64,000 nt of DNA from Patescibacteria group bacterium (GTDB lineage: Bacteria; Patescibacteriota; Patescibacteriia; UBA9934), in the NCBI GenBank assembly GCA_041661425.1, contig JBAZUI010000003.1, forward strand, positions 10,446 to 74,445. The letters are read 5' to 3'. Of this stretch, positions 12,070 to 52,292 are shown in pieces (the stretch's first letter is position 1; each line of letters starts with the position of its first letter). The notes under the pieces were generated by a model. It was not told where the DNA came from, did not search any database, and saw only the letters and a program-made list of their open reading frames with translations. Made by a program: the position numbers and the translations under genes.

Positions 12070-12070
12070 T

Positions 12071-13482: not shown

Positions 13483-13484
13483 TT

Positions 13485-27883: not shown

Positions 27884-28252
27884 ATGCCAACACCTAAAAA
27901 AATACTTGTTGTGGAGGATGAAAAATCCATGGCGAAAGCCTTGGAGCTCAAACTCACAAAAGAAGGTTTTGTCGTGGAGATTGCGGTGGATGGGGAAGGT
28001 GCTTTGGCAAAACTTCGGAAAGAAAAATACCAACTCGTTCTTTTGGATCTTGTCTTGCCAAAGCTTGATGGATTTGGAGTTCTTGAAGCAATGAAAAAAG
28101 AGGGCATCAAAACTCCCGCGATCGTTTCGACCAACTTGAGTCAGGAAGAAGATGAGGCTCGAACGCGGGCTCTCGGCGCGAAAGATTTTTTCGTCAAATC
28201 CGATACGTCTATTACTGATGTTGTGAAACACATTAAACAATTAATCGGCTAG
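27884..28252 (+). CDS. Stand-alone CheY-like response regulator receiver (PilH/PilG-like) heading the pilus locus
   Basis: KILVVEDE...LVLLDLVLPKLDG...K REC motifs, no output domain. Confidence 0.8.
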   Translation: MPTPKKILVVEDEKSMAKALELKLTKEGFVVEIAVDGEGALAKLRKEKYQLVLLDLVLPKLDGFGVLEAMKKEGIKTPAIVSTNLSQEEDEARTRALGAKDFFVKSDTSITDVVKHIKQLIG

Positions 28253-28257
28253 GAGGT

Positions 28258-29940
28258 ATGGCATTGGAGGAGAAGCAAATTCTTGATTTGCTTCTATCAC
28301 AACAGTACGTTTCAAGCGCTGATCTTGCGCGCGTGGAAAAACTCTCTAAACAAGGGGCGGGAACCCCACTTGATCTTTTGCTTTCCGGTGGATTTCTGTC
28401 GAAAGATCTTCTTGGGCAGGCGCTCGCGGAATTTTATAAAGTTCCGTATGCGGACTTGAATACAAAAATGCCGTCACGCGAACAGATTCTTCTTATTCCG
28501 GAAGGAGTTGCCAAGCAATTCCGTGCGGTTCTTTTTACGGATGCGCCAAAGAAGTTTGTGATTGCCACGGATTTGCCGCAGACGAGCGGACTTTCCACGG
28601 CAGTTAAGGAATCGGCAAAAGGGCGGACAGTAAGTGTGGTGTATGCTCTTTCCGAAGATATCGATCGGGCGCTTCAGACGTATTGGAAACCGCTCGAGAC
28701 CGAGCTTTCGGAAATTCTTTCAAATACAAAACGAGCCGCGCCAGAACTCGTCGAGGAGATTTTGCATCAAGCCATTGGTCTTCGCGCTTCGGATATCCAT
28801 TTCGAGCCGCAGGAGAAAGAAGTGGTGATTCGTTTTCGTATTGATGGAGTGATGCAGAGAGTCGCGTCACTCAAAAGAGAAACGTATGAGAATGTTTTGA
28901 ATCGGTTGAAAGTGATGTCGCATCTGCGTACGGATCAGCATGATAAAGCGCTTGATGGCTCCATCCGGTATCGATACGAAGGAGACGCGGTGGATATCCG
29001 TGTGTCCATCGTTCCGATTTTTGACGGAGAAAAAGTCGTCCTGCGTTTATTATCCTCGTATACGCGTGGGCTTTCCCTCGAGAGTTTGGGGCTCTCCAGT
29101 CCTGATCAAGAAAAACTCATTACCGCTTCCAATAAGCCGTTTGGGATGATTCTTGTGGCAGGGCCAACCGGATCAGGGAAAACAACAACGCTCTACGGCG
29201 TTATGAAAATTTTGAACACGGTTGAGGTAAATATTGCCACCATTGAGGATCCGGTGGAATATAAAATTCCGAATGTGAATCACATGCAAGTCAATTCCGA
29301 AACAGGATTGACGTTTGCGCGTGGACTGCGTTCTATTGTTCGTCAGGATCCGGATATTATCCTTGTGGGAGAAATTCGTGACGAAGAAACCGCGGATATT
29401 GCGACGAATGCGGCACTTACCGGCCATCTTTTGCTCTCGACATTTCATGCAAACGATGCCGCGACCGCCATTCCGCGTTTGCTTGATATGGGAGTGGAAC
29501 CGTTTCTTCTCGCTTCGACCTTGGAGCTGGTGATTGCCCAGCGACTTGTTCGGAAGATTTGCGATCAGTGTCGATACAGTCTCATAAAAACCGAAAAACA
29601 AATCAAAAAGGAGGCGCCTGATCTTTATTATTTCTCGCCAAAAAAATCCTATACTCTCTATGCAGGAAAAGGATGTCATGCTTGCGCGGGAACGGGTTTT
29701 TCCGGACGGACAGCTATTCTTGAAATTATCGAAATAAGTTCCGCCCTTCAGTCTCTTATTATGACGCGTCCGTCCACACAAGATATTTGGAAATTGGCGC
29801 GTGCGGAAGGGGCGACATCCATGTTTGAGGATGGGCTTCAAAAAGTTCTTCAAGGATTAACCACGCTCGAAGAATTACATCGCATTGCTTCGCCGTCGCG
29901 TGAAGATTTGGTTGCCATGCAAAAACGTGGGTTTGTATGA
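28258..29940 (+). CDS. pilB: Type IV pilus assembly ATPase PilB/GspE
   Basis: Walker A GPTGSGKTT, GspE N-domain, C-terminal tetracysteine CDQC...CHAC. Confidence 0.9.
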   Translation: MALEEKQILDLLLSQQYVSSADLARVEKLSKQGAGTPLDLLLSGGFLSKDLLGQALAEFYKVPYADLNTKMPSREQILLIPEGVAKQFRAVLFTDAPKKFVIATDLPQTSGLSTAVKESAKGRTVSVVYALSEDIDRALQTYWKPLETELSEILSNTKRAAPELVEEILHQAIGLRASDIHFEPQEKEVVIRFRIDGVMQRVASLKRETYENVLNRLKVMSHLRTDQHDKALDGSIRYRYEGDAVDIRVSIVPIFDGEKVVLRLLSSYTRGLSLESLGLSSPDQEKLITASNKPFGMILVAGPTGSGKTTTLYGVMKILNTVEVNIATIEDPVEYKIPNVNHMQVNSETGLTFARGLRSIVRQDPDIILVGEIRDEETADIATNAALTGHLLLSTFHANDAATAIPRLLDMGVEPFLLASTLELVIAQRLVRKICDQCRYSLIKTEKQIKKEAPDLYYFSPKKSYTLYAGKGCHACAGTGFSGRTAILEIIEISSALQSLIMTRPSTQDIWKLARAEGATSMFEDGLQKVLQGLTTLEELHRIASPSREDLVAMQKRGFV

Positions 29941-31628
29941 AAACAACCCCAAAAAAACAAACAGAGATTCTTGCGGAGAGCAGGGAAGAAACACAGCTAA
30001 AAGCGCGTGAGAAGACCCTTGCGAAAAAATCATCGAAGAAATTGAACACAAAAAAAACGAAGATCGAAAAATCTCCCGTCGCTTCTGCGGTGGTTCCATT
30101 AAAGAAATCACAGTGGAATCCGTTTCTTGCGCTTGTGCGTCTGGTGCGCAATAGTCTCAAGCGTCTTGATCGGATGACCATCGGAGGGAAGAAAGAGAAA
30201 GCATATTTTTTGGAATATCTTGCCGTGCTTATCACTTCGGGAATGGATCCCGCGAGCGCCATGCAATCGATTGGGAAGGATCTGCGCACGCGCTGGATTC
30301 GACAGCTTGTGGTTGAGGCGGAGGAGCGGATTCAGAGTGGAAGCAGTGTTTGGCAAACGCTCCAAGAAGCACATTTTTTGCCGAGTCATGTTATTTCACT
30401 TCTTCGCATCGGAGAAGAGTCAGGTCGTCTTTCGGACAATCTCAAAGCGGTCGTCCTCCAACAGCAAAAGGATGCGGAATTCAAATCAAAAGTTCAATCC
30501 GCCATGATGTATCCGGTATTTGTGATGTCCATCACCTTGATTGTCGGAACAGGGATTGCGTGGTTCATTTTGCCGCAACTCGCCTTGGTTTTTTCTTCGC
30601 TCGAAATGGACCTTCCATTCATCACGCGTCTCCTGATTATCGTTGGCGATTACTTGCGTTTGCATGGCACGGTTGCGGTTCCCGTATTCTTTGCGGTTTT
30701 TTTAACGTTGATTTACGTCATTTTTGGGATGCCGAAGACGAAAGTTATTGGACAGTGGTTCCTCCTCCATCTTCCGGGAGTGAAAATGGTGGTGCAACAA
30801 GTGGAGCTTTCGCGCACGGGGTTTATTCTTGGCACGTTATTGCAAGCTGGGCTCCCCATTATTGAAGCGGTTGAATCACTGCGTCAGGCAACGGTCATGT
30901 ATCACTATCGCCGATTTTATCGCGTATTGGGTGTCGCGCTCGAAGGAGGAGATTCATTTGCGCAAGTATTTTCATCATTTCGGCGCATGGGACGATTGAT
31001 TCCGAACCCGATTCAACAAATGATTGAAACCGCTGAGCGAAGTGGAACCCTTCCGGAAACGCTTATGCAAATCGGCACCATCTACGGCGAGAAGACGGAT
31101 AATTCAACAAAAAATCTTTCAGTTATTCTGGAACCGATTCTTCTTTTGATTGTTTGGCTTGGTGTGGTGGGAGTGGCCCTTGCCGTGATTCTCCCAATTT
31201 ACAGCTTGATCGGCAATCTCACCACAGCGACATCGGGCGGAGGAGCGACAACGGAGACAGAGACGTCTTCCCCGTTGAATACAGCACTCCAAGGGGATCA
31301 GGCTGTAGAGGGATTTGTTGGAAAAGTAACCGGAGGCATTCAAGACATCGTGCAATCCGCCGGAGAATATCTGGGAATCTATTCGGTGGAGAAACCCATG
31401 GCCGAAGAAGGATTGGTCGTGCATCGTCTTCGCATTTTATCGCCAATCGGCTATGTGAATGTTCGATCATCTCCATCAACCGCCGCAATGCTTCTTACGC
31501 AAGCGCTTGATGCCTCGGATTATGAATGGACCGTTCATGAAAATGGTTGGTATCAGATTATTCTATCCGATGGCAGTTTTGGCTGGATTGCGGATACGTA
31601 TGCGGAGGAAATAATCCCCGTGCCATGA
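29937..31628 (+). CDS. pilC: Type IV pilus platform protein PilC/GspF with Lys-rich N-terminal extension and C-terminal SH3b-like domain
   Basis: Two GspF repeats and 3 TM blocks. First ~100 aa are K/T-rich. Last ~90 aa (YVNVRSSPS...WYQIILSDGSFGWIADTY) read as SH3b. Confidence 0.8.
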   Translation: MKTTPKKQTEILAESREETQLKAREKTLAKKSSKKLNTKKTKIEKSPVASAVVPLKKSQWNPFLALVRLVRNSLKRLDRMTIGGKKEKAYFLEYLAVLITSGMDPASAMQSIGKDLRTRWIRQLVVEAEERIQSGSSVWQTLQEAHFLPSHVISLLRIGEESGRLSDNLKAVVLQQQKDAEFKSKVQSAMMYPVFVMSITLIVGTGIAWFILPQLALVFSSLEMDLPFITRLLIIVGDYLRLHGTVAVPVFFAVFLTLIYVIFGMPKTKVIGQWFLLHLPGVKMVVQQVELSRTGFILGTLLQAGLPIIEAVESLRQATVMYHYRRFYRVLGVALEGGDSFAQVFSSFRRMGRLIPNPIQQMIETAERSGTLPETLMQIGTIYGEKTDNSTKNLSVILEPILLLIVWLGVVGVALAVILPIYSLIGNLTTATSGGGATTETETSSPLNTALQGDQAVEGFVGKVTGGIQDIVQSAGEYLGIYSVEKPMAEEGLVVHRLRILSPIGYVNVRSSPSTAAMLLTQALDASDYEWTVHENGWYQIILSDGSFGWIADTYAEEIIPVP

Positions 31629-32083
31629 ATTGGATCGCCACACGGGTTCATCTCCCCGGCTTTTCGATGCTCGAAATGCTTCTTGTGGTGGCAACCATTG
31701 GGATTCTTGCCACCATTTCTATCCCGATCTATCGCTCAATCCTCACGGGGAATGAAATGCAAGTCGCGCGTGAAATTCTTGTGCGTGGCCTTCGTGTTGC
31801 AGAGCTTCGCACCCAATCAGGAGCTGAGGATGCATCTTGGGGAGTATTTGCACAAAGCGGTTCCGTGACGATTTTTTCCGGAGCGAACTATGTTGAGCGC
31901 GATCCAACCCTTGATGATATTTATGTCGTCTCCCAAGAACTCAATTTTTCCGGAGATACGGAAGTGACGTTCACCGCCCCGTTCGGTCAGCTTCTCACGG
32001 AAAAAACACTCATCCTCTCTCAAACTGGACATGACTCCATTTCAATTACCATTAATCTTGAAGGAGCAATCGCCTATGAATAG
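31625..32083 (+). CDS. Pseudopilin (GspH/FimT-like) with prepilin cleavage motif
   Basis: ATGA overlap with pilC. PGFSMLEMLLVVATIGILA matches G|F..LE at +5. Confidence 0.7.
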   Translation: MNWIATRVHLPGFSMLEMLLVVATIGILATISIPIYRSILTGNEMQVAREILVRGLRVAELRTQSGAEDASWGVFAQSGSVTIFSGANYVERDPTLDDIYVVSQELNFSGDTEVTFTAPFGQLLTEKTLILSQTGHDSISITINLEGAIAYE

Positions 32084-35000
32084 GCGAGGGTTCGTTGAAG
32101 CGGAAGTGCTATTGGCCGTGACAATTTTTGCGCTTCTTGTCACCACGGTCGGTGGAGTGCTTTATTCGTTACGTCAAAGTGAATATCTTTCTGGGATGAT
32201 GTCGCGTGCAACCTTTCTTGCCGAGGGGGGATTGGAAGCGGTACGAAGTCTTCGTGATCGTGCCATCAATGAAATGATTTACAATCAGAGTGCCGTGGAG
32301 ATAACAGGAAATGCCTGGAGTTTTGTTGGCGAAGGAACAGAAGAAGCGCTCGGTGATTTTACGAGGACGATTACTCTTGAGCCGGTATGTCGAAACGCAG
32401 CTGAGGAAATCACGACGTGCCCTGGAAACCGGACGGACATCTCCATGAAAAAAGTCACGTCAACGATTGATTGGACAACCATTCTTGGAGTTCATCAGTC
32501 TCTTTCCCTCACAAATTTATTATCAAATTGGGGGTCAATGAATTGGATTCAGACAGATTGGTCTGGTGGTTCGGGTCAGACTCTTTGGTCTGATGCAACA
32601 AAATATGCGACCGACGATGGCAATATCGATCCGACGATTTCCGGGGAGGTGAAGCTCGCCATGTCAACGGGAGGTGTTTCCTGTTCATCGAAAGTTTGGG
32701 ATTTTTCCACATCAAGTGAGTATACATTTGACCCGGCGCTTATTGAGGTGACGGGTGGAATGGCGCAACTTAAAAATATCGGTGGCATCTCCATGACAAC
32801 ACTCACGTCTGTTGATTCGTATGCAACTGGCGTCAATGCTTCGCATCCAAATATGGTACACGTTTCTGGAAATGTCTATGCCTATGCCTTTAGCGGTTCG
32901 GGAAATGATGGGTTTATTTCAACGGTGACGATTTCTCCAACAGGAGCCATCACAAAAAGTATTATTGATACATTTGAATACGATACTGTTGATGGGTACG
33001 ACCCTGATCTCATGTATATCTCCGGAAACATCTATGCGGTTGCCTATCGTGGGTCCGGAAATGATGGCTGGGTTGCAACGGTGACGATTTCAACCGCCGG
33101 GGTGATTACAAAAACGGTGATCGATACTTTGGAATGGGATACGGCCAATGGATACGAACCTGATATTTTTCTTGTGTCCGGAAATGTGTATGGGGTTGCG
33201 TATCGGGGAACGGGAAGTGCGGGAATTGTAAAAACGTTTACCATCGATACAGCTGGAAATATCGGAGCAGCGGTGATTGATACTCTCACGTTTGACGCCA
33301 CAGGAAATACACCGTTTGTTCTATCGGTCGGTGCAGGTTATTGGGCAATTGTTTACTCGGGGCCGGGAAATGATGGCTGGATGGCGACCGTCAATATTAC
33401 TTCCGCGGGGATTATTCCCGCAACCATTACGGATAGCTACGAATTTGATCCCTCCAATGGTCAGTATCCATCAATTGGGAGTCTTGGAGGAGATAAATAC
33501 CTGGTGGCCTATACCGGTGCAGCGGGCGACGGGTGGCTTGCAACCTTTGCGGTGAGTTCCACAGGTGTCATTACAAAATCACTTATTGATACCTTGGAAT
33601 TTGACGCAAGTGATGGAACTTATCCTGTCCTTAAAAAGGTCACAGGAACGTTTTGGACGGTTTCTTATACCGGATCTGGGAATGACGGTTTTGTTGTGTT
33701 GGTGAATGCGGCGGCGGATGGAATATTACCCGCGGCAGTCACAGCAAGTCTTGAATATGATCCCACGTATAGTCTTTCGCCATCTGTCGTCTATTTGAGC
33801 GATTATTACTTTGGCATTGCGTATATCGGGAGCGCAAATAATGTGAAGCTCGCAACTTTTTCTGTAACGGGTTCAGCAACGACCTTGTACTCAACAACGA
33901 ATCCCTCGATTTTTCCGACGAGTTCGCAAACCGCGACCAGTTTTGATGAGTGGACATCATTTACCGAAGTCGCCACAAAAGGGACAGGTGAAATTTATTA
34001 TCAACTTTCCGATGATAATGGTGTGACGTGGTATTGGTGGAATGGCACGACCTGGGCCGTGGCAGGAACTGGAAATTATAATTCTGCGACCGTGGTGAAT
34101 TCAAAGATTTATGCTTTTCCGGTTGCCTCTGGGCAAATTAAATTCCGTGCATTTCTTTCGAGCAGCGGAACACAGCAAGTCCAATTAGATTCTGTCACGA
34201 TTGGGTGTAGCGCCATGCAATTCGAAATTGGATCGATCAACGCAAATAATACGTGGCAGACCGTCACAATGCTTCAAAATTATAGTGATCCCATTGTGGT
34301 GGGATCGTATCAAGAAATTGCAAATACCGCGGATATTTCTGTGCGGATTCGAAATGTCACCACCACCACTTTCGACGTCCGTCTCGAGAGTGCAAGCGGA
34401 GCGAGCATCTCAGCTGATCCCGTGACGTATTTTGTGATGGAGCGTGGCGTCTGGACCATTGGGGGATTTAATTTTGAGGCGCAAAAACAAACAGTCGCGA
34501 CCGTTGCCACGGCCTCGAGTTGGGTGGCCGATCAAGTGACATTTCACCGAGGATTTGGGATAGCACCGTTTGTCATGCATCAAGTGATGTCGCAAAGTGA
34601 CTCAAAATGGATCACCACTTGGGTGAGCCAATACGGGACTCGAACAAATCCACCCATTTCAACAGGATTTGGATTGGGGCTCAATGCGGCTGAAGTTGCG
34701 GCAAGTGCAACGCATGGCGCGGAAACCGTGGGTTGGATTGCAACCGACGCAAATGTCGGTGGAACCCTTGGCGGTGTCTTATTCGAAACTCATCTTACCG
34801 GATCAACCGTGCAAGGTCACGATAACGGGTGTTATACAACCCCGTATTCCTATACCTATACCGCAGCTCCAAAGGTGTTGGGTTTTCAACAAACCATGAA
34901 TGATCCCAACGGTGGATGGGCGGTGGTTTGTAGCAATAGTACGGCACAACCAGGATTTCATATCGAGGAAGATTCGGTTCTTGATGCGGAACGGAGTCAC

Positions 35001-35402
35001 GGAACGGAACAAATTGGATTCCTTGCATTTTCAACAGGCACGCGGTATTCCTCCGTTGGCGGTAGTTTGTACCCTCTGTACGGAGAATTGACATCATCAG
35101 CTTTCAATCTAACCGATGTGTCACCGGTGCAAATATTGGAGTGGGATGAAGAGACGACGTCTTGCACGCCGGCATGTACAATAAAAATTCAGGTTCGCAC
35201 CGCACCTGATGTTGCGGGCGCTCCAGGGATTTTTACCTCGTGGTATGGAGCAGGTGGGGTTGGAACGTATTTTACAGATCCTGCCGGATCACTTATTCCA
35301 AAGGATTTGAATTGGAATCAGTGGGTTGAATATCGGGTGGAATTGGCAGGAGATGGAATACAAACCCCGGTTCTCCAAGAAGTTCGTCTCAATTATCGAT
35401 GA
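32076..35402 (+). CDS. Pseudopilin-fused giant repeat protein (1108 aa), candidate pilus-tip adhesin
   Basis: N-terminus MNRRGFVEAEVLLAVTIFALL is a prepilin leader with G-F-x-x-x-E. Then about eight ~45-aa repeats G.vYavaY.G.GNDGw.aTv.I...G.It...IDtlefD. Sits in the minor-pilin gene block. Confidence 0.6.
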   Translation: MNRRGFVEAEVLLAVTIFALLVTTVGGVLYSLRQSEYLSGMMSRATFLAEGGLEAVRSLRDRAINEMIYNQSAVEITGNAWSFVGEGTEEALGDFTRTITLEPVCRNAAEEITTCPGNRTDISMKKVTSTIDWTTILGVHQSLSLTNLLSNWGSMNWIQTDWSGGSGQTLWSDATKYATDDGNIDPTISGEVKLAMSTGGVSCSSKVWDFSTSSEYTFDPALIEVTGGMAQLKNIGGISMTTLTSVDSYATGVNASHPNMVHVSGNVYAYAFSGSGNDGFISTVTISPTGAITKSIIDTFEYDTVDGYDPDLMYISGNIYAVAYRGSGNDGWVATVTISTAGVITKTVIDTLEWDTANGYEPDIFLVSGNVYGVAYRGTGSAGIVKTFTIDTAGNIGAAVIDTLTFDATGNTPFVLSVGAGYWAIVYSGPGNDGWMATVNITSAGIIPATITDSYEFDPSNGQYPSIGSLGGDKYLVAYTGAAGDGWLATFAVSSTGVITKSLIDTLEFDASDGTYPVLKKVTGTFWTVSYTGSGNDGFVVLVNAAADGILPAAVTASLEYDPTYSLSPSVVYLSDYYFGIAYIGSANNVKLATFSVTGSATTLYSTTNPSIFPTSSQTATSFDEWTSFTEVATKGTGEIYYQLSDDNGVTWYWWNGTTWAVAGTGNYNSATVVNSKIYAFPVASGQIKFRAFLSSSGTQQVQLDSVTIGCSAMQFEIGSINANNTWQTVTMLQNYSDPIVVGSYQEIANTADISVRIRNVTTTTFDVRLESASGASISADPVTYFVMERGVWTIGGFNFEAQKQTVATVATASSWVADQVTFHRGFGIAPFVMHQVMSQSDSKWITTWVSQYGTRTNPPISTGFGLGLNAAEVAASATHGAETVGWIATDANVGGTLGGVLFETHLTGSTVQGHDNGCYTTPYSYTYTAAPKVLGFQQTMNDPNGGWAVVCSNSTAQPGFHIEEDSVLDAERSHGTEQIGFLAFSTGTRYSSVGGSLYPLYGELTSSAFNLTDVSPVQILEWDEETTSCTPACTIKIQVRTAPDVAGAPGIFTSWYGAGGVGTYFTDPAGSLIPKDLNWNQWVEYRVELAGDGIQTPVLQEVRLNYR

Positions 35403-35403
35403 T

Positions 35404-35904
35404 ATGGAATATCGTGCAAAAGGATTTACTCTCATTGAACTCCTCCTCTATATTGCCTGTGCATCAGTCATTCTTTTACTGGGAGGATCATTTTTGCACA
35501 TGGTGCTCGAAACGCGTGTGCGTCAGGAAGTGATGTCAACGGTCGAAGAAGAAGGACGATTTGCCATGAATACAATCATTGCAGAGATTCGCACAGCGTC
35601 ACATGTCGCCGCTCCTCTGCCTGCAATAACAAGCACGTCACTTCTATTGGATATGCCAGGGGGAACACAGGAGACGTTTGTTTTATCCGGAACCGTACTT
35701 GTATTTACGCGTGGCGTTAATCCATCTCTATCTCTCACATCAAATCTTGTTGAAATAAGCAATCTTCAATTTCAAAATGTGAGTGCGGAAAATGCGGGGG
35801 ATAGTATCAAAATCACCTTCACACTTTCACATGTCAACTCTTCGAATAAATCCGAGTATACCTATGTCCAAACGTTCACAAGCGCGACAACAATCCGGCC
35901 ATAA
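35404..35904 (+). CDS. Minor pseudopilin (PilW/GspJ-like)
   Basis: AKGFTLIELLLYIA prepilin motif. Confidence 0.65.
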   Translation: MEYRAKGFTLIELLLYIACASVILLLGGSFLHMVLETRVRQEVMSTVEEEGRFAMNTIIAEIRTASHVAAPLPAITSTSLLLDMPGGTQETFVLSGTVLVFTRGVNPSLSLTSNLVEISNLQFQNVSAENAGDSIKITFTLSHVNSSNKSEYTYVQTFTSATTIRP

Positions 35905-36286
35905 GGGATTTATCACCCTCACGGGTATTTTGATTATTGCCGCGGTCTCGGTGACAATCGTCATTGCATTTTTTGGATTAGCCGTTGGTGGCATGAATGT
36001 GGCAACAGTTTTTAAACACGGGGAGCAGGCGCGTGCCCTTGCGGAAAGTTGTGCAGAGGAGGCATTAGGACAACTGCGACTTTCCGATGCGTATGCGGCT
36101 GGGAAAATCATTACATTTACTCATGGCTCTTGTCAGATCGTTGCCATCGCCGGTTCGGGAAATACGAATCGCACTCTTCAGGTCATTGGAGTTGTTGAGG
36201 GAACGACGCGACGCTTAGAAATAGAAATCGCACAAATTTCCCCTATCATACAAATTATTTCGTGGACGGAGGTCGCCATATTTTAA
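35864..36286 (+). CDS. Minor pilin-like protein lacking Glu5 (PilX/GspK-like)
   Basis: HKGFITLTGILIIAAVSV hydrophobic N-terminus. Overlaps the upstream gene by 41 nt. Confidence 0.45.
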   Translation: MSKRSQARQQSGHKGFITLTGILIIAAVSVTIVIAFFGLAVGGMNVATVFKHGEQARALAESCAEEALGQLRLSDAYAAGKIITFTHGSCQIVAIAGSGNTNRTLQVIGVVEGTTRRLEIEIAQISPIIQIISWTEVAIF

Positions 36287-36324
36287 ACAATCAAGTATAA
36301 TCAAATAAACATTTAACAATAGAT

Positions 36325-36786
36325 ATGAAATACTCATTTCAAAAAGGATTTACTTTATTGGAAATCCTCCTCGTGGTTGCGGCGATTGCGATCTTGGCTG
36401 GGATCGTGATTATCGCTATCAACCCTGCAAAACAATTGGCCGAAGTCCGCAATGCGCAACGAGCTATTGATGTGAATACGATTCTCAATGGCGTCTATCA
36501 ATATTCCATCGATAATAACGGAGATCTGCCCGCTTCTGTTAATGGCGGAACGAGCTGTGGAACTGTTGAGGAAGATGAAATTTGTACAACCGGTGGAACT
36601 TGTACGGATCTTACTGATTTGGGCGTGATTACAGCGGATCAAACGTATCTCGTCAGTATGCCGGAAGATCCGCAAGATGCAACCGCAAATGGAACAGGGT
36701 ATTTTATTATTCAAAGTACGAACGGCCGTGTGACCGTTTGCGCTCCCGGAGCAGAATTAGATGCAACGATTACCGTTACTCGATAA
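36325..36786 (+). CDS. pilA: Type IV major pilin (PilA-like) copy 1
   Basis: QKGFTLLEILLVVAAIAILAGIVI prepilin leader, 153 aa, C-terminal Cys pair. Confidence 0.8.
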   Translation: MKYSFQKGFTLLEILLVVAAIAILAGIVIIAINPAKQLAEVRNAQRAIDVNTILNGVYQYSIDNNGDLPASVNGGTSCGTVEEDEICTTGGTCTDLTDLGVITADQTYLVSMPEDPQDATANGTGYFIIQSTNGRVTVCAPGAELDATITVTR

Positions 36787-36787
36787 T

Positions 36788-37234
36788 ATGAAAAAGGGGT
36801 TTACGCTTATAGAAATTCTTCTCGTGGTGGCGGCTATTGCGATTCTTGCCGGGATTGTGATCATTGCCATTAACCCCGCCAAACAATTAGCCGAAGTTCG
36901 AAACGCACAGCGTTGGGAAAATGTGAATACGATTTTGAATGGCGTCTATCAGTATTCCATCGATCACAATGGTGATCTCCCAACCACGATCAATGAAAAT
37001 TCAAGTTGTGCGGGGTATGCCGTGAATGAAATTTGTTATGGGTCTTCGTGTGCAAGTTATACGAATTTAAGTGCACTCACAACAGAAGAAGTCTATTTAG
37101 TTGGTATGCCACGCGATCCCTCAATTTCTTCAGGAAGTGGGTCTGGATATTTTATTCACAAAACCGAATATGATCGTGTTGAGGTCTGCGCTCCCGAAGC
37201 TGAACTAGAAGAGACGATTAGTGTAAAACGATAA
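36788..37234 (+). CDS. pilA: Type IV major pilin (PilA-like) copy 2
   Basis: MKKGFTLIEILLVVAAIAILAGIVIIAINPAKQLAEVRNAQR is near-identical to copy 1 over the first ~45 aa. C-terminal half diverges. Confidence 0.8.
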   Translation: MKKGFTLIEILLVVAAIAILAGIVIIAINPAKQLAEVRNAQRWENVNTILNGVYQYSIDHNGDLPTTINENSSCAGYAVNEICYGSSCASYTNLSALTTEEVYLVGMPRDPSISSGSGSGYFIHKTEYDRVEVCAPEAELEETISVKR

Positions 37235-37283
37235 GGGGATGTCGAGGCAGGTCTGTGACCTGCCTTTGTGATTTTCGTTATTT

Positions 37284-38039
37284 ATGGTCATCGAGATCGT
37301 GATTGGAGGTATTTTTGGAAGCATCATCGCGAGTGCGATTGGATGTGCAGCCATGCGAGCGGGTGATGGTCGATCATTTTTTTATGGTCGATCGCTTTGT
37401 GATGGATGTCAAAAAATATTGCATCCTCTTGCTCTGATTCCAATTTTAAGTTTTTGTTTTCAAAAAGGACGTGCGCGATGTTGCGGGGTGCGACTTTCGC
37501 GAATTTATTTGCTTCTTGAAATGGTTGGGGCCATCCTTGGAGGATATATAGGATACGAGATTTGGCAGGGGGTGAGTACATGGGGAGTGATTCGATGGAT
37601 TTTGGTGATTGGATTTATTCTTTGGACTATCGCAACCGATGGACATAAGATGCTAGTTTCTCTTCCGGTCACTTTAGGATTTTCTGTCATCATGATGATT
37701 CTTCCTTTTGAATACGGGACTATCTTTAATCGTTTATTCATGGCCGGATGTTTTGTCATATTTTTTGGTGTGCAGTATTTATTCACAAAAGGAAAGGGGA
37801 TTGGGACAGGTGATTTTGCACTCGGGATTGCTCTTGGAACGAGTTTGGGATTTCCGTTAGCAATTATCGCTGCAATGGTTGGCTATGTGATTGGCGCCTT
37901 TCACGCGATGTATTTGCTGATGATAAAAAAAGCGGATCGAAGAACTCCCTTGCCATTGGGGGTGTATTTAATGTTGGGTCTCGCGATTACTTTTATGGGA
38001 TCTTCTTTTATTTTTTCTTGGTTAGGGATTGTACAATAA
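37284..38039 (+). CDS. pilD: Prepilin peptidase PilD (A24 family)
   Basis: 8 TM, N-terminal Cys pairs CDGC / CCG, catalytic Asp-containing loops. Confidence 0.8.
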
Positions 38040-38086: not shown

Positions 38087-38163
38087 GGGTCGGTAGTTCA
38101 ATTGGTTAGAGCACCGCCCTGTCACGGCGGAAGTTGCGGGTTCGAGCCCCGTCCGACCCGCCA
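38087..38163 (+). tRNA. tRNA-Asp (GTC)
   Basis: GGGTCGG acceptor stem, anticodon loop CTGTCAC, TTCGAGC T-loop, encoded CCA. Confidence 0.9.
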
Positions 38164-38197: not shown

Positions 38198-38214
38198 CGA
38201 AGAACCACCCCTTA

Positions 38215-38270
38215 CCCCTCCTTTGAAAGGAGGGGTAATTACGTAGGGACAGGTCGCGACCTGTCCCTAC
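38215..38270. repeat. Two palindromic units: CCCCTCCTTTGAAAGGAGGGG and GTAGGGACAGGTCGCGACCTGTCCCTAC
   Basis: Both belong to families that recur elsewhere in the window (48.77 kb, 54.38 kb; 37.25, 42.03, 49.05, 52.3 kb). Confidence 0.7.
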
Positions 38271-38429
38271 AGAATGATGCAGGTGGATAAAATTTCAATA
38301 GGTAGAATGACAGATAGAACGAAGAAAGCCGAGACAGGGGTTAGGGGCTGGAACCCCCTTAAAAACAATTCGAGTCCCGTTTCGCGAGACGAGTAGTCTC
38401 AAGCGATACGGGACTCAGAGAGGTGTGCG

Positions 38430-40082
38430 CTAGTAGTTGGACTTCGTGACCCGCACGGCCGGACATCCACCCGAAGGTGTGTGGCCGGGTCGGGGCACGC
38501 AGTCCTCGAGGAGGGGCGAGCCGTCGACGAGGATCGTGCGATCGCTCACCGTGGCGCCAGCCACCTCGATACGGTAGCGCACTCCATCGATTTTTCCGCA
38601 CCCCACCACCACGCCGGAGTCGTTCCGGTAGGCAATGTAGGTGTGGAAGATCTCCGGCGCCGGAGTTTCTGCCGCGCTGACCTCGGCCACGGTCGTGATG
38701 GCTGGCTCTGATTTCCACTCGGGGAGCTTGGGCCAGCCAACCTCGGGGATCGCGACATCCGGCATGCTCGGACGCCAGGTAGGCATGGCCGGCAGGCTGA
38801 TGGTCGGCGCCTTCGGCCAGGTGATGGCCGGAGCCTTGGGCAGATTCGGGATGGAGATGCGGGGCATCTCCACCTTGGGCCAAGTCCAGGGCTCATTGGG
38901 CGGCGGAGATTCTTCCTCCTCGAGTGCGGTGAGGAGCGCGGGGTCGGGCTTTGCCTCGACCATCACGAGCTTCTCCTGGGGCGCATCAACGAGGATCAAC
39001 CCGTCGAGCTGACCCACGAGCACGAGGACGAGAACGGTGAGTGTGACACCCACTATGAACTCGAACCCCATCGCGACCGCTCCCCACGTCGCGATGCGTT
39101 TGACGAGCGAAGGCTGTCTTGGCCTTGCTTCGCGTGGAGTTGCCGGTGGCGGAGCATAGCGACGCTCCTGTGCCGGGGTCGTACTCCAGGCGAGTAGTTC
39201 CTCGTCTTCCCAGACGTCCCCGTCGGACGCGTTCCTCTCAGGCGCAGGCCTCACGGTCACAACATCATTGGGGTCGATGTCGATCACGATCGGCCGTGGA
39301 ACCCGTGGGGCGTGCTGGGGAGCTGGCGTCCGTTGCTCGGCGAGGACCGGGAGCTGATCCTCCTCCCACTCGACCATCACAGGCCTTGGGCCTGGGGCGC
39401 GGTAGAATTGCCCGAGGTCCGGCATCATCTTCTTGGTCGATCCGATGACTGCTGGGAGCAGCCGCGCATCGCCCGTATCTTCGTCCAGTATGAAGATCGG
39501 GGCTTCTTCGTCGATTTCGATCACCGCCCCATCGGTCGGGTCGGCGTCGGGATCGATGAACTCGAGGTTGCTGAAGTCATCGAGAACAGTTTCCGCCCGG
39601 GACCAGGTACCCTTGGGAGCTGTCCAGATCCCCAGCTCATCCGCGAGAGCCTGGATGTGCCTCTCGAACTCCCTCGAGATCTTCAAGAGGGAGGTCGCGA
39701 TCACTGCGACAGCCTCGGGAATCGGGAAGTCGGAGAGAACATCAGTCTGTTCTTTTTTCATCTTCTCGATGTCGCCCATGGTCGGACGACGGGGAAGGCT
39801 CGCAATGAGCATCCTGTGGTGTGCGAGCATGGTTTCCACGCTCTGCACACCTTCGAGAACTTCGTCGGCACCCACTGCCTTCTTGCAGAATGCAGCGAGT
39901 TCGACTCGAAGGGGCTCGAAGAAGTCGCTGACATCCTTTGGCGGGATTTCCACCTCAATCAGCAGGGATGTCGCGAGCTCCTTGAACACGATGCCTACCG
40001 AGAAGAACGGTGCATCGTCTTTCTGAATGTTCTCGAGACAGGCAACAGCATAACGGACAGAAGCCTTGAAAGTGTCGAGCAT
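38430..40082 (-). CDS. Hypothetical membrane protein of high-GC island 1 (cytoplasmic N-domain, TM, Pro-rich ectodomain with WPK repeats and Cys-containing C-terminal module)
   Basis: GC3 near 90%, unlike host genes. Opposite-strand ORFs are low-complexity mirrors. Confidence 0.5.
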   Translation of the reverse strand: MLDTFKASVRYAVACLENIQKDDAPFFSVGIVFKELATSLLIEVEIPPKDVSDFFEPLRVELAAFCKKAVGADEVLEGVQSVETMLAHHRMLIASLPRRPTMGDIEKMKKEQTDVLSDFPIPEAVAVIATSLLKISREFERHIQALADELGIWTAPKGTWSRAETVLDDFSNLEFIDPDADPTDGAVIEIDEEAPIFILDEDTGDARLLPAVIGSTKKMMPDLGQFYRAPGPRPVMVEWEEDQLPVLAEQRTPAPQHAPRVPRPIVIDIDPNDVVTVRPAPERNASDGDVWEDEELLAWSTTPAQERRYAPPPATPREARPRQPSLVKRIATWGAVAMGFEFIVGVTLTVLVLVLVGQLDGLILVDAPQEKLVMVEAKPDPALLTALEEEESPPPNEPWTWPKVEMPRISIPNLPKAPAITWPKAPTISLPAMPTWRPSMPDVAIPEVGWPKLPEWKSEPAITTVAEVSAAETPAPEIFHTYIAYRNDSGVVVGCGKIDGVRYRIEVAGATVSDRTILVDGSPLLEDCVPRPGHTPSGGCPAVRVTKSNY

Positions 40083-40255
40083 TCTCCCCTCCCGGGGTTT
40101 GCGGTTTTTGTGGTTGGATAACAGAAAGTTTGAAAAGAACAGAGGGGAACATTAACAAAAAAAATGCGTCTTGTCAACGCATGATCTTAAACGAAAATGC
40201 CCCCCGACCGAAGTTAGACTTCAATCGGGGAGCAGGGGCCTGACAGACGGGAGCG

Positions 40256-41782
40256 CTAGTTGATGCGCTCGACCGTTGGGCAGGCCCGGCTGGCGGGGGT
40301 CGTCTCGCCAGGATTGCCGGTGAGGCAATCCCAGGCCACGGGCTTGCCGCGGTAGCGGCAGGCACCGTCCTCGGCGGGCTTCACATTGAGCCCGTTGAGG
40401 AAGTACTGCCCGCCCGTGGTGGGGCGGACCACGACCGCGCCGTGTCCGGCGACCTGGCGGCCACACGGCACGAAAGCCGTGGGCACCGGCGGGGCCGCGG
40501 GCTGCTCGAGGGCGCTGAGGCGCGCCTCGAGGTCGGCCAGGGCCTCGTCCGTGTCGGACGAGGCGACTGGGACGGGGGTGACCACCACCGGGATCGTCTC
40601 GACGACGGCCGGGGTGCTCACCCACCACCAGCCGCCGATTCCGGTGGTCCCCACGAGGCCGGCGCACAGGGCGCAGGCCAGGAGGAGGGCGAGCAGGGCA
40701 ACGAGGCCCAGACACCCGCCCTTCCACCATCCCCACCAGCCGTTGCCCTTGGCGGGCGGGTCGGCGGGGGGATCGGCCACCGCCACCTTCTTGGTGGGCG
40801 GCTCGTCCGGCGGGCCACCGGCCATGGCCGCGAGGCCGATGACCGGGACCACGGGGATGAACGGTGGCGGGGCCACGGCGCGGGGCGCCGGGGCCGGGTC
40901 GGTGTCGGCCGCCGCCTTGTCCACGGCCGCGCTGAGCGCGGCGTCGTGGTTGGGGCCGGCGGGCGGGTCGGCCACGGTCGCCTTGGGGGCGATCTTGGCC
41001 GTGGCATCCCCGGGGTCGGGCACCACGGCCGCGAGGACCGTGGGGACCGGGCGCGGCGGGAGGCTCGGGCCCTTGGGGGGCTCGGGCTCGGCCGGGGCCG
41101 GGGTGGCGGCGGGCGGGTCGGTGGGCGAGGAGGCGATCACCTCCTCATCCTCATCCTCGTCCTCGTCGTCCGCGTCGGTGTCGGTCGGGTCGGGCTCGAC
41201 CGGGGCAGCCTCGGTAGCCGCCTTGGCCGCCTCGACGGCCTGCTCGGCCCGGTGGGCCGCGGCGCGGGCCGCCTCGGCCGTGGCCTCGGCGGTATCGGCC
41301 TCGGCCTTGCGGCCGTCGGCGATCGCCTCGGCCGAGCCGGCCTTGTCGGCGGCCTCGTCCGCCTTTCGGCCGAGGTCGTCGTCGTCGGGGCTGGCCTCGG
41401 CCACGGCGTCGGCCTTCTTGGCGATCTTCCGGAGCCGTTCGGCCTCGATCACGGCGGCCTCGGCCAGCGACTTTTTGCCGCCGGCGATGGCCGCAAGCAC
41501 CATGAGCTCGTCGGCCTTGAGCCGCTCCCAGAAGGCCACGACCTCGGGGTCGATTGACGACTCGTCGGTTTTGGCGAAGGCGTCGAGCGCCTCGGTCGCG
41601 GCGACGATCTGCTCGCGCAGCTCGCCGAGCTCGAGGTTGAGCTCTTCGGCCTCATCGGTCTTGGCCTCGGCCTCGAGCTTGGCCTTGGTGGCCAGGAACT
41701 CGGCGACCGACTCCGCCATGAGCTGGCGGAGGGCCGCGAGGGTCGCGGCGGAGGCGGGGGTGACGGCGGGGGTCTGGGTCAT
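40256..41782 (-). CDS. Hypothetical membrane protein of high-GC island 1 (Ala/Glu-rich coiled-coil N-terminus, poly-acidic tract, TM, Trp cluster, Cys-containing C-terminal module)
   Basis: Same architecture as the 38430 gene, so probably a paralog. Very high GC3. Confidence 0.5.
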   Translation of the reverse strand: MTQTPAVTPASAATLAALRQLMAESVAEFLATKAKLEAEAKTDEAEELNLELGELREQIVAATEALDAFAKTDESSIDPEVVAFWERLKADELMVLAAIAGGKKSLAEAAVIEAERLRKIAKKADAVAEASPDDDDLGRKADEAADKAGSAEAIADGRKAEADTAEATAEAARAAAHRAEQAVEAAKAATEAAPVEPDPTDTDADDEDEDEDEEVIASSPTDPPAATPAPAEPEPPKGPSLPPRPVPTVLAAVVPDPGDATAKIAPKATVADPPAGPNHDAALSAAVDKAAADTDPAPAPRAVAPPPFIPVVPVIGLAAMAGGPPDEPPTKKVAVADPPADPPAKGNGWWGWWKGGCLGLVALLALLLACALCAGLVGTTGIGGWWWVSTPAVVETIPVVVTPVPVASSDTDEALADLEARLSALEQPAAPPVPTAFVPCGRQVAGHGAVVVRPTTGGQYFLNGLNVKPAEDGACRYRGKPVAWDCLTGNPGETTPASRACPTVERIN

Positions 41783-42070
41783 CGGAAACTCCTTGCCCTC
41801 TTGGAGGGCAATGGGGGTGGTGGATATTTGCCAGGGGGTCAGCTTCTCGGTCGACCCCTGGCGGGTTCTTCAGATGTAAATGAAGGAGATCGCCCCTTTT
41901 TGAGGTTTTAAGGCCTCTTAAAGGGACGATTCCAGGCTTGAACTGGACCGGGTATTATAGCAGAAAAACAGCGATTTGTCAATGATTCAAATGAAAAAAT
42001 CGCCTTATCTTGGCGAAATTCATGGGCAGGTCACAGACCTGCCCGTACGCAAATCAATCAAAACAAAAAG

Positions 42071-48759: not shown

Positions 48760-49140
48760 TCGCGACCACCCCTCACCCCTCCTTTGAAAGGAGGGGTCTC
48801 CTTCTGGAGCCTCCCCCTTAAGCAAGGGGGAGTAAAGAGGGGGTTATGAAAACCGTGGGGCGACCGGCCGGTCGCCCATAGTAAGCGAAGTGTATGGGGG
48901 TGTAAATTCGATTTTCTTGACACCGGTTTTCTCCTCTGTTAGGTTTGAACCATGAAGCCCCTTGGAAGGGCTCGGTGGAACGGTCGTGACGCCTCCTCCT
49001 CGTCGCGATTCGTCCCCGCCGAGCCTTTCGAGGGGGTTTTTGTTTTTGGGCAGGTCGCAGACCCGCCCGTACGGCGTGATGTAGGGGCATGGCATGCCAT
49101 GCCCATACGCCAAAGCGCGTTTTTTTGCTCATTTTACCCA
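48760..49140. repeat. BIME-like cluster of GC-rich palindromic units
   Basis: CCCCTCCTTTGAAAGGAGGGG, CTCCCCCTTAAGCAAGGGGGAG, GGGCGACCGGCCGGTCGCCC, GGGCAGGTCGCAGACCCGCCC, GGCATGGCATGCCATGCC in series. Confidence 0.6.
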
Positions 49141-49415
49141 TAAAACCCACCAAACCCCTTGACAATCAGCTGGTTTTTTGATATTGTTACGGGTCCGTAA
49201 AAACGGGCGTGACCTTTAAAAAGGCTGGTTTCTGGCCTTCTCTGATTCGGTGTCCGACAACCTACCCTCCTAGGATGTTGTTGACGCCGGGTCATAGAAG
49301 GCTCAGAAGTCAGAAAATGAGCCCCCGCACCCCCGTGCGGGGGGCATAAGCCACAAAACCCCGCCCGTCCTCCCCAGAAAGGAGGCTCCGGGCAAAAACC
49401 AAAAGGAGGGTCACC

Positions 49416-50396: not shown

Positions 50397-50810
50397 AGCG
50401 CAACGCTCGAACCGCCGCCCTCACCAACTACGTGTTCGCGGGGATTAATCAAGTGCACTGCACAAGATTCTTCCCCGCGGATGCAACTTATCAAGAATTG
50501 TTACGGATGCTCTTCTAGTGTGAAGAACAGCCATAAGACTTCTTGAAAATTGAGGAAGTCAAGAACATTCAAATCGAAAATACAACGAACATCTGCGATG
50601 GTGCCGTCCACATGAGTGCTGATTAGCACTGAAGGATTGCCGACTAGACTAAATGGTTCCAAAGAAATTTTTGGCACTCATGAGTCGTCGCCATGGCAGA
50701 TGTTCGAAAGCTGCCTCCGCCCGCCCTTGGGGCGGCGGCAAAGTTTCCGCTCGCGACCCATCCCGGGTCTACGAGCAAGTGTCTAAACCTAGAAGTCCTT
50801 GGAGGACACC

Positions 50811-52287: not shown

Positions 52288-52292
52288 AGAAG

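Follow-up and report, generated by a model that had tools for sequence, protein, structure and literature searches.

A patescibacterial secretin-less type IV pilus gene cluster encodes a giant modular pilin with a predicted seven-bladed propeller

A cluster of pilus genes occupies positions 27884-38039 on the plus strand of the analysed window, a 64-kb stretch (64,000 nucleotides) from a Patescibacteria group bacterium. Pfam and NCBIfam scans, together with inspection of the letters themselves, bore out the gene content, order and placement given in an earlier sequence-only reading, and all genes described there were found where they had been located (Table 1). REC comes first, then PilB, PilC with an SH3b-like domain, the four minor prepilins, both PilA paralogues and PilD, with tRNA-Asp behind it. 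The core type IVa set of PilB, PilC, PilD and major and minor pilins is present. We read the cluster as a single operon encoding a monoderm-type, secretin-less type IV pilus; its source is a Patescibacteria/CPR MAG. An assembly chimera as the source of the GC-rich islands was judged unlikely, given the normal-GC housekeeping genes between the islands and the hairpin repeats shared at their borders.

Table 1. Pilus genes and giant-pilin domains, in window coordinates; a slash marks the end of a leader.
Feature	Size or residues	Position	Strand	Characteristics
REC, stand-alone response-regulator receiver, first operon gene	122 aa	27884-28252	+	Pfam Response_reg E 2.6e-21
PilB/GspE-type assembly ATPase	560 aa	28258-29940	+	Pfam T2SSE E 2.2e-121, MshEN E 1.3e-6
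PilC/GspF platform protein	563 aa	29937-31628	+	T2SSF E 1.3e-38
Minor prepilin 1	152 aa	31625-32083	+	Leader MNWIATRVHLPG/FSMLE; N_methyl match, weak GspH match
Giant modular pilin (second minor prepilin)	1108 aa	32076-35402	+	Leader MNRRG/FVEAE
Giant pilin: pilin module	aa 1-165	32076-32570	+	Class III signal peptide, alpha1 helix, beta-sheet head with C105 and C115
Giant pilin: linker domain, small beta	aa 166-245	32571-32810	+	Follows conserved WxQTDWSGG motif (aa 157-165)
Giant pilin: propeller	aa 246-610	32811-33905	+	Seven repeats of 51-52 aa; seven-bladed beta-propeller (AlphaFold2)
Giant pilin: beta-sandwich domain with one helix	aa 611-715	33906-34220	+	AlphaFold2; motif EIYYQLSDDxGxTWYWWNG
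Giant pilin: two tandem beta domains	aa 716-995	34221-35060	+	Weakly like H-type lectins and pyocin-fibre receptor-binding domains
Giant pilin: C-terminal beta-sandwich	aa 996-1108 + stop codon	35061-35402	+	Motif QxRTAPDxxGxPGxWxxWYG...QYRxxLxGDGxxTPxLxEVRxNY
Minor prepilin 3	166 aa	35404-35904	+	Leader MEYRAKG/FTLIE; N_methyl E 3e-5
Minor pilin 4	~140 aa	~35864-36286	+	Leader ...GHKG/FITLT, start codon inferred; read from sequence
PilA-like pilin 1	153 aa	36325-36786	+	G/FTLLE; N_methyl E 6.8e-6; TIGR02532 28 bits, above cut-off
PilA-like pilin 2	148 aa	36788-37234	+	MKKG/FTLIE; N_methyl E 4e-5; TIGR02532 29 bits
PilD prepilin peptidase	251 aa	37284-38039	+	A24_N_bact E 6.9e-17, Peptidase_A24 E 2.1e-6
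tRNA-Asp		38087-38163	+	3' of PilD

The assembly ATPase matched the NCBIfam GspE and PilB models at E values of 1e-140 to 1e-143, yet stayed under their equivalog cut-offs. Two peculiarities that had been ascribed to the platform protein proved real, namely a Lys-rich N-terminal extension (15 Lys among the first 60 aa) and a C-terminal SH3b-like domain at aa 506-553 (SH3_3, E 9.3e-6; its 26.2 bits fall just short of the cut-off, 27); the SH3_3 domain recurs on PilC of a related locus, L001. REC stands at the equal position in L001, L003, L006 and L007, and a gene is found at the PilD position in L001 and L002.

No secretin, PilM/N/O, PilP or PilT turned up in a scan of window ORFs of 150 aa or more (the 3179-aa ORF at 2530-12069 excepted), in agreement with the sequence-only reading; this statement applies to the 64-kb window and not to the whole genome. 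The sole actin-like ATPase in the window (15250-16509) was considered as a PilM candidate and dropped, as it is FtsA, with full FtsA/SHS2 domains and FtsZ as its neighbour. The locus had been called complete, and its missing PilM and related components had been taken to fit a CPR-type pilus. Neither view is supported: PilM lies within the homologous operons of two related CPR loci (L003 and L007), and the one CPR pilus system studied by experiment possesses PilM/N/O and PilT (PMC11623550). For the same reasons, the absence of PilM/N/O and PilT is no hallmark of 'CPR-type' pili, nor is it to be judged from one window. As these components did not turn up in the 64 kb, assembly and retraction by the locus alone are putative.

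Sequence searches of the PDB with the three small minor pilins gave nothing informative beyond helix matches. The start of minor prepilin 1 overlaps the pilC stop codon, and its N-terminal helix matches PilA chains (8tum, E 2e-5). This protein had been described as a GspH-like pseudopilin; it is a prepilin with a GspH match, but the match is far below the cut-off (E 3.5e-4, 20.6 bits against 80). Its slot holds a gene of ~140-170 aa in five of five related loci. Minor prepilin 3 is weakly GspJ/ComGF/PpdC-like (NCBIfam ComGF, PRK10557 and HpsC at E 2e-4 to 5e-3, below cut-off). Minor pilin 4 overlaps it, is devoid of Glu+5 like GspK, PilX and ComGG, and had no match in Pfam and NCBIfam scans; a PDB match to a 'Pizza' designer propeller, with no significant stretch, was ignored. 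L001 and L002 likewise have pairs of overlapping genes that match minor pilins 3 and 4 in size. The tandem PilA-like pair reported earlier is present and consists of paralogues that are 63% identical (BLASTP E 1e-65); the major-pilin role attributed to the pair is a candidate assignment, with PilA-like pilin 1 as the candidate major pilin.

The product of the giant gene is identical to the NCBI entry 'hypothetical protein WC730_01275 [Patescibacteria group bacterium]'. An AAGGAG ribosome-binding site lies 9-14 nt upstream of its start; this site and the NCBI call favour position 32076, and an alternative ATG at 32031, which would give a 20-residue leader, was therefore dropped. With either start the prepilin motif is kept. 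The N-terminus, MNRRG/FVEAEVLLAVTIFALLVTTVGG, combines a short basic leader, Gly-1, a hydrophobic stretch and Glu+5. In an alignment of 21 homologous sequences Gly-1 (G5) was invariant, and Glu+5 (E10) and two Cys residues were each kept in at least 90%; the earlier claim of a bona fide prepilin leader, which homologues devoid of Gly-1 or Glu+5 could have overturned, thus stands. Pfam PF07963 (N_methyl) and TIGR02532 did not match the giant protein at E values up to 0.01, whereas N-terminal methylation models do match genes 4, 6, 8 and 9 (minor prepilins 1 and 3 and both PilA-like pilins). The miss is probably due to the residues V-E-A at +2 to +4, which are unusual for a prepilin; many homologues have a more canonical GxSLxE leader.

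Profile searches of the PDB with the pilin module retrieved the generic pilin helix only (Geopilin, E 0.019; PilA, E 0.2) and gave no support for assigning the head domain to PilV, PilX or GspI/K. A weak and fragmented match to Aureispira GhpA, again with no significant stretch, was taken as spurious. AlphaFold2 prediction, with an alignment input of 54 sequences, yielded a model of the whole protein with a mean pLDDT of 91.1, in which the N-terminus adopts the pilin 'lollipop': a helix of 59 residues (4-62) and strands within residues 74-159, with pLDDT mostly 78-96 past the first 10 residues. Judged by its sequence, the 1108-aa protein is a true prepilin.

The remainder of the model is a series of beta domains, beginning with the linker, its lowest-confidence part (pLDDT 61-81). 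The repeats that follow had been counted as about eight of ~45 residues; there are in fact seven, of the length given in Table 1, with an average pairwise identity of 35%, and most propeller homologues have 7 or 14. A beta-propeller or beta-sandwich array had been forecast for this region, and structure prediction settled with high confidence on the former, with pLDDT values of 95-98 for the blades. With the prepilin motif conserved and the propeller modelled, the description of the protein as a pseudopilin fused to a repeat protein is upheld. No Pfam or NCBIfam model matched the propeller repeats when the whole protein and six sub-regions were scanned up to E=10; matches of the giant protein to CBM53, BNR and DUF6373 in these scans were noise, and RCC1 models did not match the repeat region even at E up to 10. 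The nearest solved structures of the propeller are the PLL/PHL/BP39L bacterial lectins, narrowly ahead of generic propellers.

Of the two single beta-sandwiches, that at aa 611-715 gave no significant Pfam or PDB match and is kept in most CPR homologues. The C-terminal one, with no database match, is the most widely kept cargo domain among these homologues; its pLDDT is mostly 89-96, with a single dip to 63 near aa 995. For the tandem domains in between, the Pfam H_lectin family (PF09458) was matched below threshold and over 32 residues only (E 7e-4, 20.1 bits against 24), and three homologues (P0003, P0005 and P0009) carry precomputed PF09458 annotations. Foldseek aligned aa 716-995, locally only and always at E >0.1, with 6ct8 (probability 1.0), SLL-2 (3wmp, 0.98) and HPA (2ce6, 0.96), and the C-terminal half modelled separately had no match at E <=0.001. 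We regard the likeness of this half to H-type lectins and pyocin fibres as a resemblance only and a weak lead. LamG lectin domains co-occur with the propeller in many homologues. As modelled, the giant protein is a modular pilin in the sense of Raynaud et al. (2021), that is, a pilin module with extra independent modules, because a pilin at aa 1-165 is joined to the propeller and further beta domains and the propeller is also found in non-pilin proteins.

The gene order REC-PilB-PilC-small-giant-small-small-(PilM)-PilA is kept in five other CPR loci, and in six loci the giant gene has the same place, flanked by other minor-pilin genes. The motif WxQTDWSGG is conserved across the homologue alignments and served as the pattern for a genome scan, built from 7 close sequences, which detected the carrier pilin module in 169 or more species genomes, where it usually bears other cargo. 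In the best 80 of these 169 loci the ORFs ranged from ~330 to 1900 aa (the shorter ones being truncated by contig ends), and any match to the propeller repeat was present in 6 of the 80. The corresponding 80 genomes appear to belong to CPR lineages: many titles name such a lineage, others are generic, and ~23 read 'uncultured Gammaproteobacteria', which we take to be mislabels.

The propeller repeat family itself comprises ~1,565 clusters at 50% identity. Its members include an archaeal pilin adjoining PilB/PilC homologues and a prepilin with the GFTLIE motif whose pilus locus contains a secretin; the propeller is therefore a repeatedly used pilin cargo. From this distribution we tentatively suggest, with rather less than even confidence, that the 52-aa repeat defines an uncatalogued family of lectin-like seven-bladed propellers that serve as exchangeable tip-subunit cargo across domains of life (on CPR, Thermoplasmatota archaeal and secretin-pilus prepilins), and that the second minor-pilin slot of CPR is a cargo-swapping cassette setting host or partner specificity.

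Outside pilins, the same propeller is found on proteins that have an ordinary signal peptide, and it also makes up ~380-aa proteins in which neither an N-terminal leader nor a hydrophobic segment can be recognised. These occurrences, like the N_methyl miss, would suit a giant protein that acts outside the pilus, either as a lectin/adhesin (membrane-anchored or released, at the surface or secreted) whose gene simply shares a transcript with the pilus genes, or as a substrate of a T2SS-like pseudopilus. We consider this unlikely, as the protein carries the conserved prepilin residues and a full pilin head with its Cys pair, is predicted to fold as a lollipop, and is encoded at a fixed position among minor pilins.

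A second rival reading, in which the operon makes a competence (Com-like) pilus that takes up DNA and the giant pilin captures DNA or merely primes assembly as a structural subunit, is likewise improbable. Partial NCBIfam matches to ComGA (E 1e-74), ComGB, ComGC and ComGF point in this direction, as do the absence of PilT from the locus, a trait of Com pili, and the fact that CPR bacteria are naturally competent and devoid of nucleotide synthesis (PMC11623550). However, all the Com matches are below cut-off (ComGA, 250.8 bits against 300) and weaker than those to GspE/PilB, comEA and comEC were not found in the 64-kb window, and no DNA-binding module can be recognised in the cargo, which is made up of a propeller and of lectin-like beta domains. 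Moreover, competence was not impaired in TM7x mutants of a pilus with a propeller pilin (PMC11623550). DNA capture, one of the functions proposed in the sequence-only reading, found no specific support. That the propeller is a pilus-displayed enzyme (a sialidase-like glycosidase, lyase or lactonase) degrading host envelope polymers is very unlikely, since its matches to enzymes, at 8-12% identity, reflect a shared fold, the giant protein matches no Pfam or NCBIfam model of a catalytic family, and globally the propeller superposes best on non-enzymatic lectins (TM 0.74-0.78 across the full target).

The interpretation we prefer, with a probability of roughly 65%, is that of a secretin-less CPR pilus operon whose second minor pilin is a tip-displayed modular pilin, with a cargo that most likely binds glycans on the surface of a partner or host cell. 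PilD would remove the short basic leaders from six prepilins, and the fibre would be polymerized by PilB and PilC from either one PilA paralogue or both. The four minor pilins (small, giant, J-like and K-like without Glu+5) may form a priming complex that ends up at the pilus tip, the giant pilin docking into the fibre through its ordinary N-terminal 165-residue pilin module. Its cargo of ~940 residues, predicted to comprise the linker, the seven-bladed lectin-like propeller, a beta-sandwich, two weakly H-type-lectin-like domains and the terminal beta-sandwich, would be too bulky for the fibre body and hence be displayed at the tip. There it would most likely bind surface glycans and so confer attachment specificity on the pilus. 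A constant carrier module and operon slot with cargo swapped across CPR lineages would be expected of a host-recognition determinant. By analogy with known systems, the giant pilin is most likely a pilus-tip adhesin; this role, as put forward earlier, is plausible and has published precedent, while resting on inference.

CPR bacteria (Patescibacteria) are mostly uncultivated episymbionts, and host recognition is a central open question in their biology. The closest precedent is PilX2 of TM7x (Nanosynbacter lyticus, Saccharibacteria), a minor pilin of the T4P-2 system with a heptabladed propeller, which was proposed to be a tip adhesin and whose deletion halves host binding without abolishing the fibre (PMC11623550). 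Like the giant pilin, PilX2 is a minor pilin of a CPR bacterium, bears a large seven-bladed propeller on its C-terminal side and is encoded among other minor pilins. They differ in that the PilX2 propeller, compared here by its description, is of the RCC1 type, whereas the giant pilin has a distinct 52-aa repeat with no RCC1 or other Pfam match; in that PilX2 has no predicted PilD signal while the giant pilin has the canonical Gly-1/Glu+5; and in the ~500 further residues of beta domains on the giant pilin. The locus follows the same design as PilX2, in another CPR lineage and with a different, unannotated propeller family.

Modular pilins, e.g. PilB with a vWA and PilC with a ConA-like lectin module in S. 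sanguinis, are reported to be widespread and probably tip-exposed, and the published survey of them already covered cases from CPR (Falkowbacteria, Magasanikbacteria) as well as cargos of the LamG/lectin type (Raynaud et al., 2021; PMC8179133). Since modular pilins are already in the literature, as is a CPR pilin that bears a propeller and binds the host, the giant pilin is no new kind of machine. It differs from the surveyed proteins in that its cargo is a chain of several domains, ~940 aa in all. The main module lacks any database signature, and signature-based surveys would therefore miss it. Comparison of the loci suggests that, over many CPR classes, the carrier pilin stays constant while its cargo can be exchanged. 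The result is a concrete list of candidate host-specificity determinants that can be mined from metagenomes, and the propeller deserves a family definition.

With the PLL/PHL/BP39L lectins of Photorhabdus, Burkholderia and Chromobacterium, the cargo has the predicted seven-bladed propeller fold in common. The minor-pilin genes recall the core GspH-I-J-K and FimU-PilV-W-X sets of T2SS and T4aP, being four in a row with the last devoid of Glu+5 as in GspK, although the first and third are only weakly GspH-like and GspJ/ComGF-like, all far below family cut-offs; on gene order alone, the giant pilin would occupy the GspI/PilV slot. A four-minor-pilin complex, a large propeller adhesin and variable modules on a constant carrier are also features of the PilY1/PilC tip adhesin of T4aP in Pseudomonas, Neisseria and Myxococcus, whose PilY1-family models in Pfam and NCBIfam did not match the giant protein. 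PilY1 is a non-pilin that docks non-covalently on minor pilins, whereas the propeller of the giant protein is covalently fused to its pilin.

The pilus genes form an unbroken row on the plus strand at 27884-38039 (ORF map and Pfam/NCBIfam scans; see table), encoding PilB and PilC, PilD, a pair of candidate major pilins and a set of four minor pilins whose order is conserved, with ~940 residues of beta-rich cargo on one of the minor pilins. Neighbouring genes abut or overlap along the whole row, consistent with a single operon. All genes that the sequence-only reading had assigned to the locus were found where it placed them, but its description of the locus as complete went too far: the scanned ORFs of the 64-kb window (those of at least 150 aa, except the one at 2530-12069) include none for a secretin, PilM/N/O, PilP or PilT. 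An actin-like gene at 15250-16509 was considered as PilM and rejected, being FtsA next to FtsZ. The Gly(-1)/Phe(+1)/Glu(+5) signature is present in five of the six pilin-like products, and minor pilin 4 is without Glu+5, as are GspK, PilX and ComGG. PilC also has the K-rich N-terminus and SH3b-like C-terminus ascribed to it earlier, i.e. 15 Lys among the first 60 residues and an SH3_3 match (E 9e-6; 26.2 bits, below the cut-off of 27) that recurs in one homologous locus.

Genes of the pilus row, with GC-rich islands of the window and an archaeal pilus locus
Feature	Position	Strand	Basis or remark
REC, stand-alone receiver protein	27884-28252	+	ORF map, Pfam/NCBIfam
PilB/GspE ATPase	28258-29940	+	T2SSE, E 2e-121
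PilC/GspF platform	29937-31628	+	ORF map, Pfam/NCBIfam
Minor pilin-like gene 1	31625-32083	+	first of four consecutive
Minor pilin-like gene 2 (giant, 1108 aa)	32076-35402	+	second of four consecutive
Minor pilin-like gene 3	35404-35904	+	third of four consecutive
Minor pilin-like gene 4	about 35864-36286	+	fourth of four consecutive; G|FITLT
PilA-like gene 1, candidate major pilin	36325-36786	+	63% identical to PilA-like gene 2
PilA-like gene 2, candidate major pilin	36788-37234	+	63% identical to PilA-like gene 1
PilD prepilin peptidase	37284-38039	+	Pfam/NCBIfam
tRNA-Asp	38087-38163		closes pilus gene row
GC-rich island 1	38204-42050		up to 82% GC vs about 47% background
GC-rich island 2	48765-52360		up to 73% GC vs about 47% background
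Archaeal pilus locus L004	Thermoplasmatales CP070724.1 755-12468		gene content and repeat count

The giant pilin starts at ATG 32076, with AAGGAG 9-14 nt upstream; GenBank uses the same start and lists the identical protein as 'hypothetical protein WC730_01275 [Patescibacteria group bacterium]'. In the Pfam/NCBIfam scans the N_methyl models did not match the protein itself, probably owing to V-E-A at +2 to +4. When the first 165-180 residues of 21 homologues were aligned, Gly-1 was invariant, Glu+5 was present in at least 90% (one has Asp), and the cysteines C105 and C115 were each at least 90% conserved; most homologues have a leader of the form G(Q/F/A)S(L/I)(L/I/V)E, more canonical than that of the giant pilin. 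The earlier reading would have given up the pilin assignment had Gly-1 and Glu+5 varied among homologues; instead, its pilin-repeat fusion is borne out by the conserved prepilin motif together with a predicted pilin lollipop. In the AlphaFold2 model of the whole protein (54-sequence alignment; mean pLDDT 91.1), a 59-residue N-terminal helix (4-62) packs against a beta-sheet (74-159). That the giant protein stays outside the fibre, merely anchored or secreted, is unlikely, since the protein has a pilin head and a class III motif conserved among homologues, and sits in a fixed slot of the operon.

Beyond the pilin module, the model predicts a linker domain of lower confidence (aa 166-245), a propeller of seven four-stranded blades (28 strands, aa 238-601, pLDDT 95-98) and four more beta domains (aa 611-1108). 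The repeat array is thus predicted to take the first of the two folds previously offered for it, although the earlier count of eight repeats of ~45 aa has to be revised: the array (aa 246-610) consists of seven repeats, each 51-52 aa long (anchors at aa 268, 320, 372, 423, 475, 527 and 579), with pairwise identities of 17-58% (mean 35%). Even when hits up to E 10 are allowed, the propeller is not covered by any Pfam or NCBIfam model. It differs from the RCC1 propeller, and the giant pilin is no PilY1 homologue; its sequence does not demonstrably belong to the PLL or H-lectin families. The C-terminal half, modelled alone (pLDDT 89.8), had no Foldseek match among solved structures at E ≤ 0.001; its high-probability alignments, to receptor-binding domains of pyocin tail fibres and to the H-type lectins SLL-2 and HPA, were all local. 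The likeness to SLL-2 and HPA agrees with a sub-threshold Pfam H_lectin match in the giant pilin (E 7e-4) and with the PF09458 annotation of three of its homologues.

Five loci with homologues, L001/L002 (P0008), L003 (P0015), L006 (P0019) and L007 (P0004), share the gene order REC, PilB, PilC, a ~140-170-aa gene, the giant gene, two further genes and PilA-like genes. The two genes after the giant are both small in four loci, and in L006 the first encodes 931 aa; in L001/L002, PilD follows the PilA genes as in the window. L003 (12270-14411) and L007 (14884-16356) have a PilM-like gene inside the operon, placed after the minor pilins and before PilA. The PilM-like gene of L003 bears the SH3_3 domain, whereas in the window and in L001 the domain is fused to PilC, which argues that the SH3b module moves between machinery components. 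Scanning one genome per GTDB species with the motifs WxQ[TS]DW..GG and GE[GS]T..., we found relatives of the carrier module, the N-terminal pilin part, in at least 169 species genomes. The best 80 of these appear to be CPR lineages: many of their record titles name Magasanik-, Uhr-, Falkow-, Buchanan-, Dojka-, Berkel-, Ryan-, Vogel- and Sungbacteria, Microgenomates, Parcubacteria/Paceibacteria and MAGs labelled Saccharibacteria, other titles are generic ('Patescibacteria group bacterium', 'bacterium'), and ~23 TPA records labelled 'uncultured Gammaproteobacteria' are taken to be mislabels. Carrier ORFs in these 80 loci range from about 330 to about 1900 aa, the shorter ones being truncated by contig ends, and only six loci have a propeller-repeat match, which argues for a constant pilin module and operon slot with variable cargo.

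The propeller also occurs in other settings. Searched exhaustively with phmmer, with only the propeller as query, 1.84 billion cluster representatives yielded 1,565 proteins at E ≤ 0.001 (594 at E ≤ 1e-30). Among 102 homologues whose settings were compared, CPR prepilins have 7 or 14 blades, often with LamG; Thermoplasmatota type IV pilins combine AVSE(I/V)(L/M)G leaders and Pfam Pilin_N with 14 blades and LamG; and GFTLIE prepilins and proteins with ordinary signal peptides bear the propeller as well. In a complete Thermoplasmatales genome, the gene for archaeal P0035 immediately follows a pair of PilB-like and a pair of PilC-like genes. The two PilB-like ATPases of the archaeal pilus locus L004 are very large (846 and 915 aa), its two PilC-like genes are split, and its 1185-aa pilin has LamG and 14 copies of the giant pilin's propeller repeat. 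The GFTLIE prepilin P0048 is encoded beside T2SSF, MshE-type T2SSE, AAA/PG-binding, TPR and secretin genes, and we read this as a probable MSHA-like diderm pilus locus. The best 150 hits of the phmmer search included 121 newly retrieved sequences, of which 25 were ≤ 420 aa. Most of these 25 are proteins of ~380 aa made up of the seven-blade propeller alone; they start 'MAEGDIGAVIDTLEFD', and neither a leader nor a hydrophobic segment can be recognised at the N-terminus. Examples are P0125, P0146, P0179-P0182 and P0188-P0191. These are close in size to soluble PLL lectins.

[quoted passage not shown] Bulky modular pilins have been argued to fit only at the pilus tip (PMC8179133). We propose that the giant pilin docks by its pilin module and would present its propeller and lectin-like domains distally, where they may bind a glycan on a partner cell; the SH3b-like domain of PilC (PilM in L003) might, more speculatively, link the platform with the wall of a cell that has no outer membrane or secretin. 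Such a system would work like a modular-pilin tip adhesin, and like the minor pilin PilX2 of Nanosynbacter lyticus TM7x, which carries a heptabladed propeller; its deletion and the loss of the major pilin or of PilB2 lower host binding equally, yet without PilX2 fibres still form (PMC11623550). The tip adhesin suggested from sequence holds up as a candidate whose function is inferred. A competence pilus is improbable, as all Com matches were sub-threshold and the giant pilin has no recognisable DNA-binding module. An enzymatic propeller, for which fold-level matches at 8-12% identity could be cited, is less probable still. Earlier publications already describe type IV pili of CPR bacteria, architectures without a secretin, modular pilins, some of them from CPR bacteria, and a CPR pilin that has a propeller and takes part in host binding. 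To these, our comparisons would add an unannotated family of 52-aa-repeat propellers, its repeated use as cargo on pilins of CPR bacteria, of archaea and of one secretin-containing pilus locus, and a conserved CPR carrier-pilin slot with seemingly swappable cargo.

Island 1 starts right after tRNA-Asp, and short repeats common to both GC-rich islands lie at their bounds: a 33-nt hairpin-containing repeat, ACCACCCCT[T/C]ACCCCTCCTTTGAAAGGAGGGGT, at 38204 and 48765, and a 26-nt palindromic hairpin, GGGCAGGTCACAGACCTGCCCGTACG, at 42024, 49048, 52292 and 52334. The islands resemble cassettes of foreign or unusual DNA; an assembly chimera is disfavoured by the intervening housekeeping genes, whose GC content is normal (IF3, AI-2E transporter, PDZ protein). 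A 550-aa ORF in island 1 (38430-40082, minus strand) matched only itself among 5.8 billion proteins. The ORF at 50799-52016 (+) in island 2 has Asp/Cys-rich tandem repeats and matches Pfam Cu-binding_MopE ('putative metal-binding motif'; E 3.4e-31, four stretches), a repeat that would be less unusual in a high-GC, Myxococcota-like genome than in a CPR one. A predicted surface protein of 1832 aa is encoded at 21065-26563 (+), 1.3 kb upstream of the pilus operon; it combines propeller repeats of NHL/DUF6923/PQQ type with M14 zinc carboxypeptidase and fn3 domains, and is a further large candidate for a role at the surface or in host interaction. Further large surface-protein genes cluster at 906-14435 (+), among them the 3179-aa ORF at 2530-12069, a protein of 574 aa that has Big_5 and weakly matches the CPR-typical T4SS_pilin, and two proteins with bacterial TSP3 repeats.
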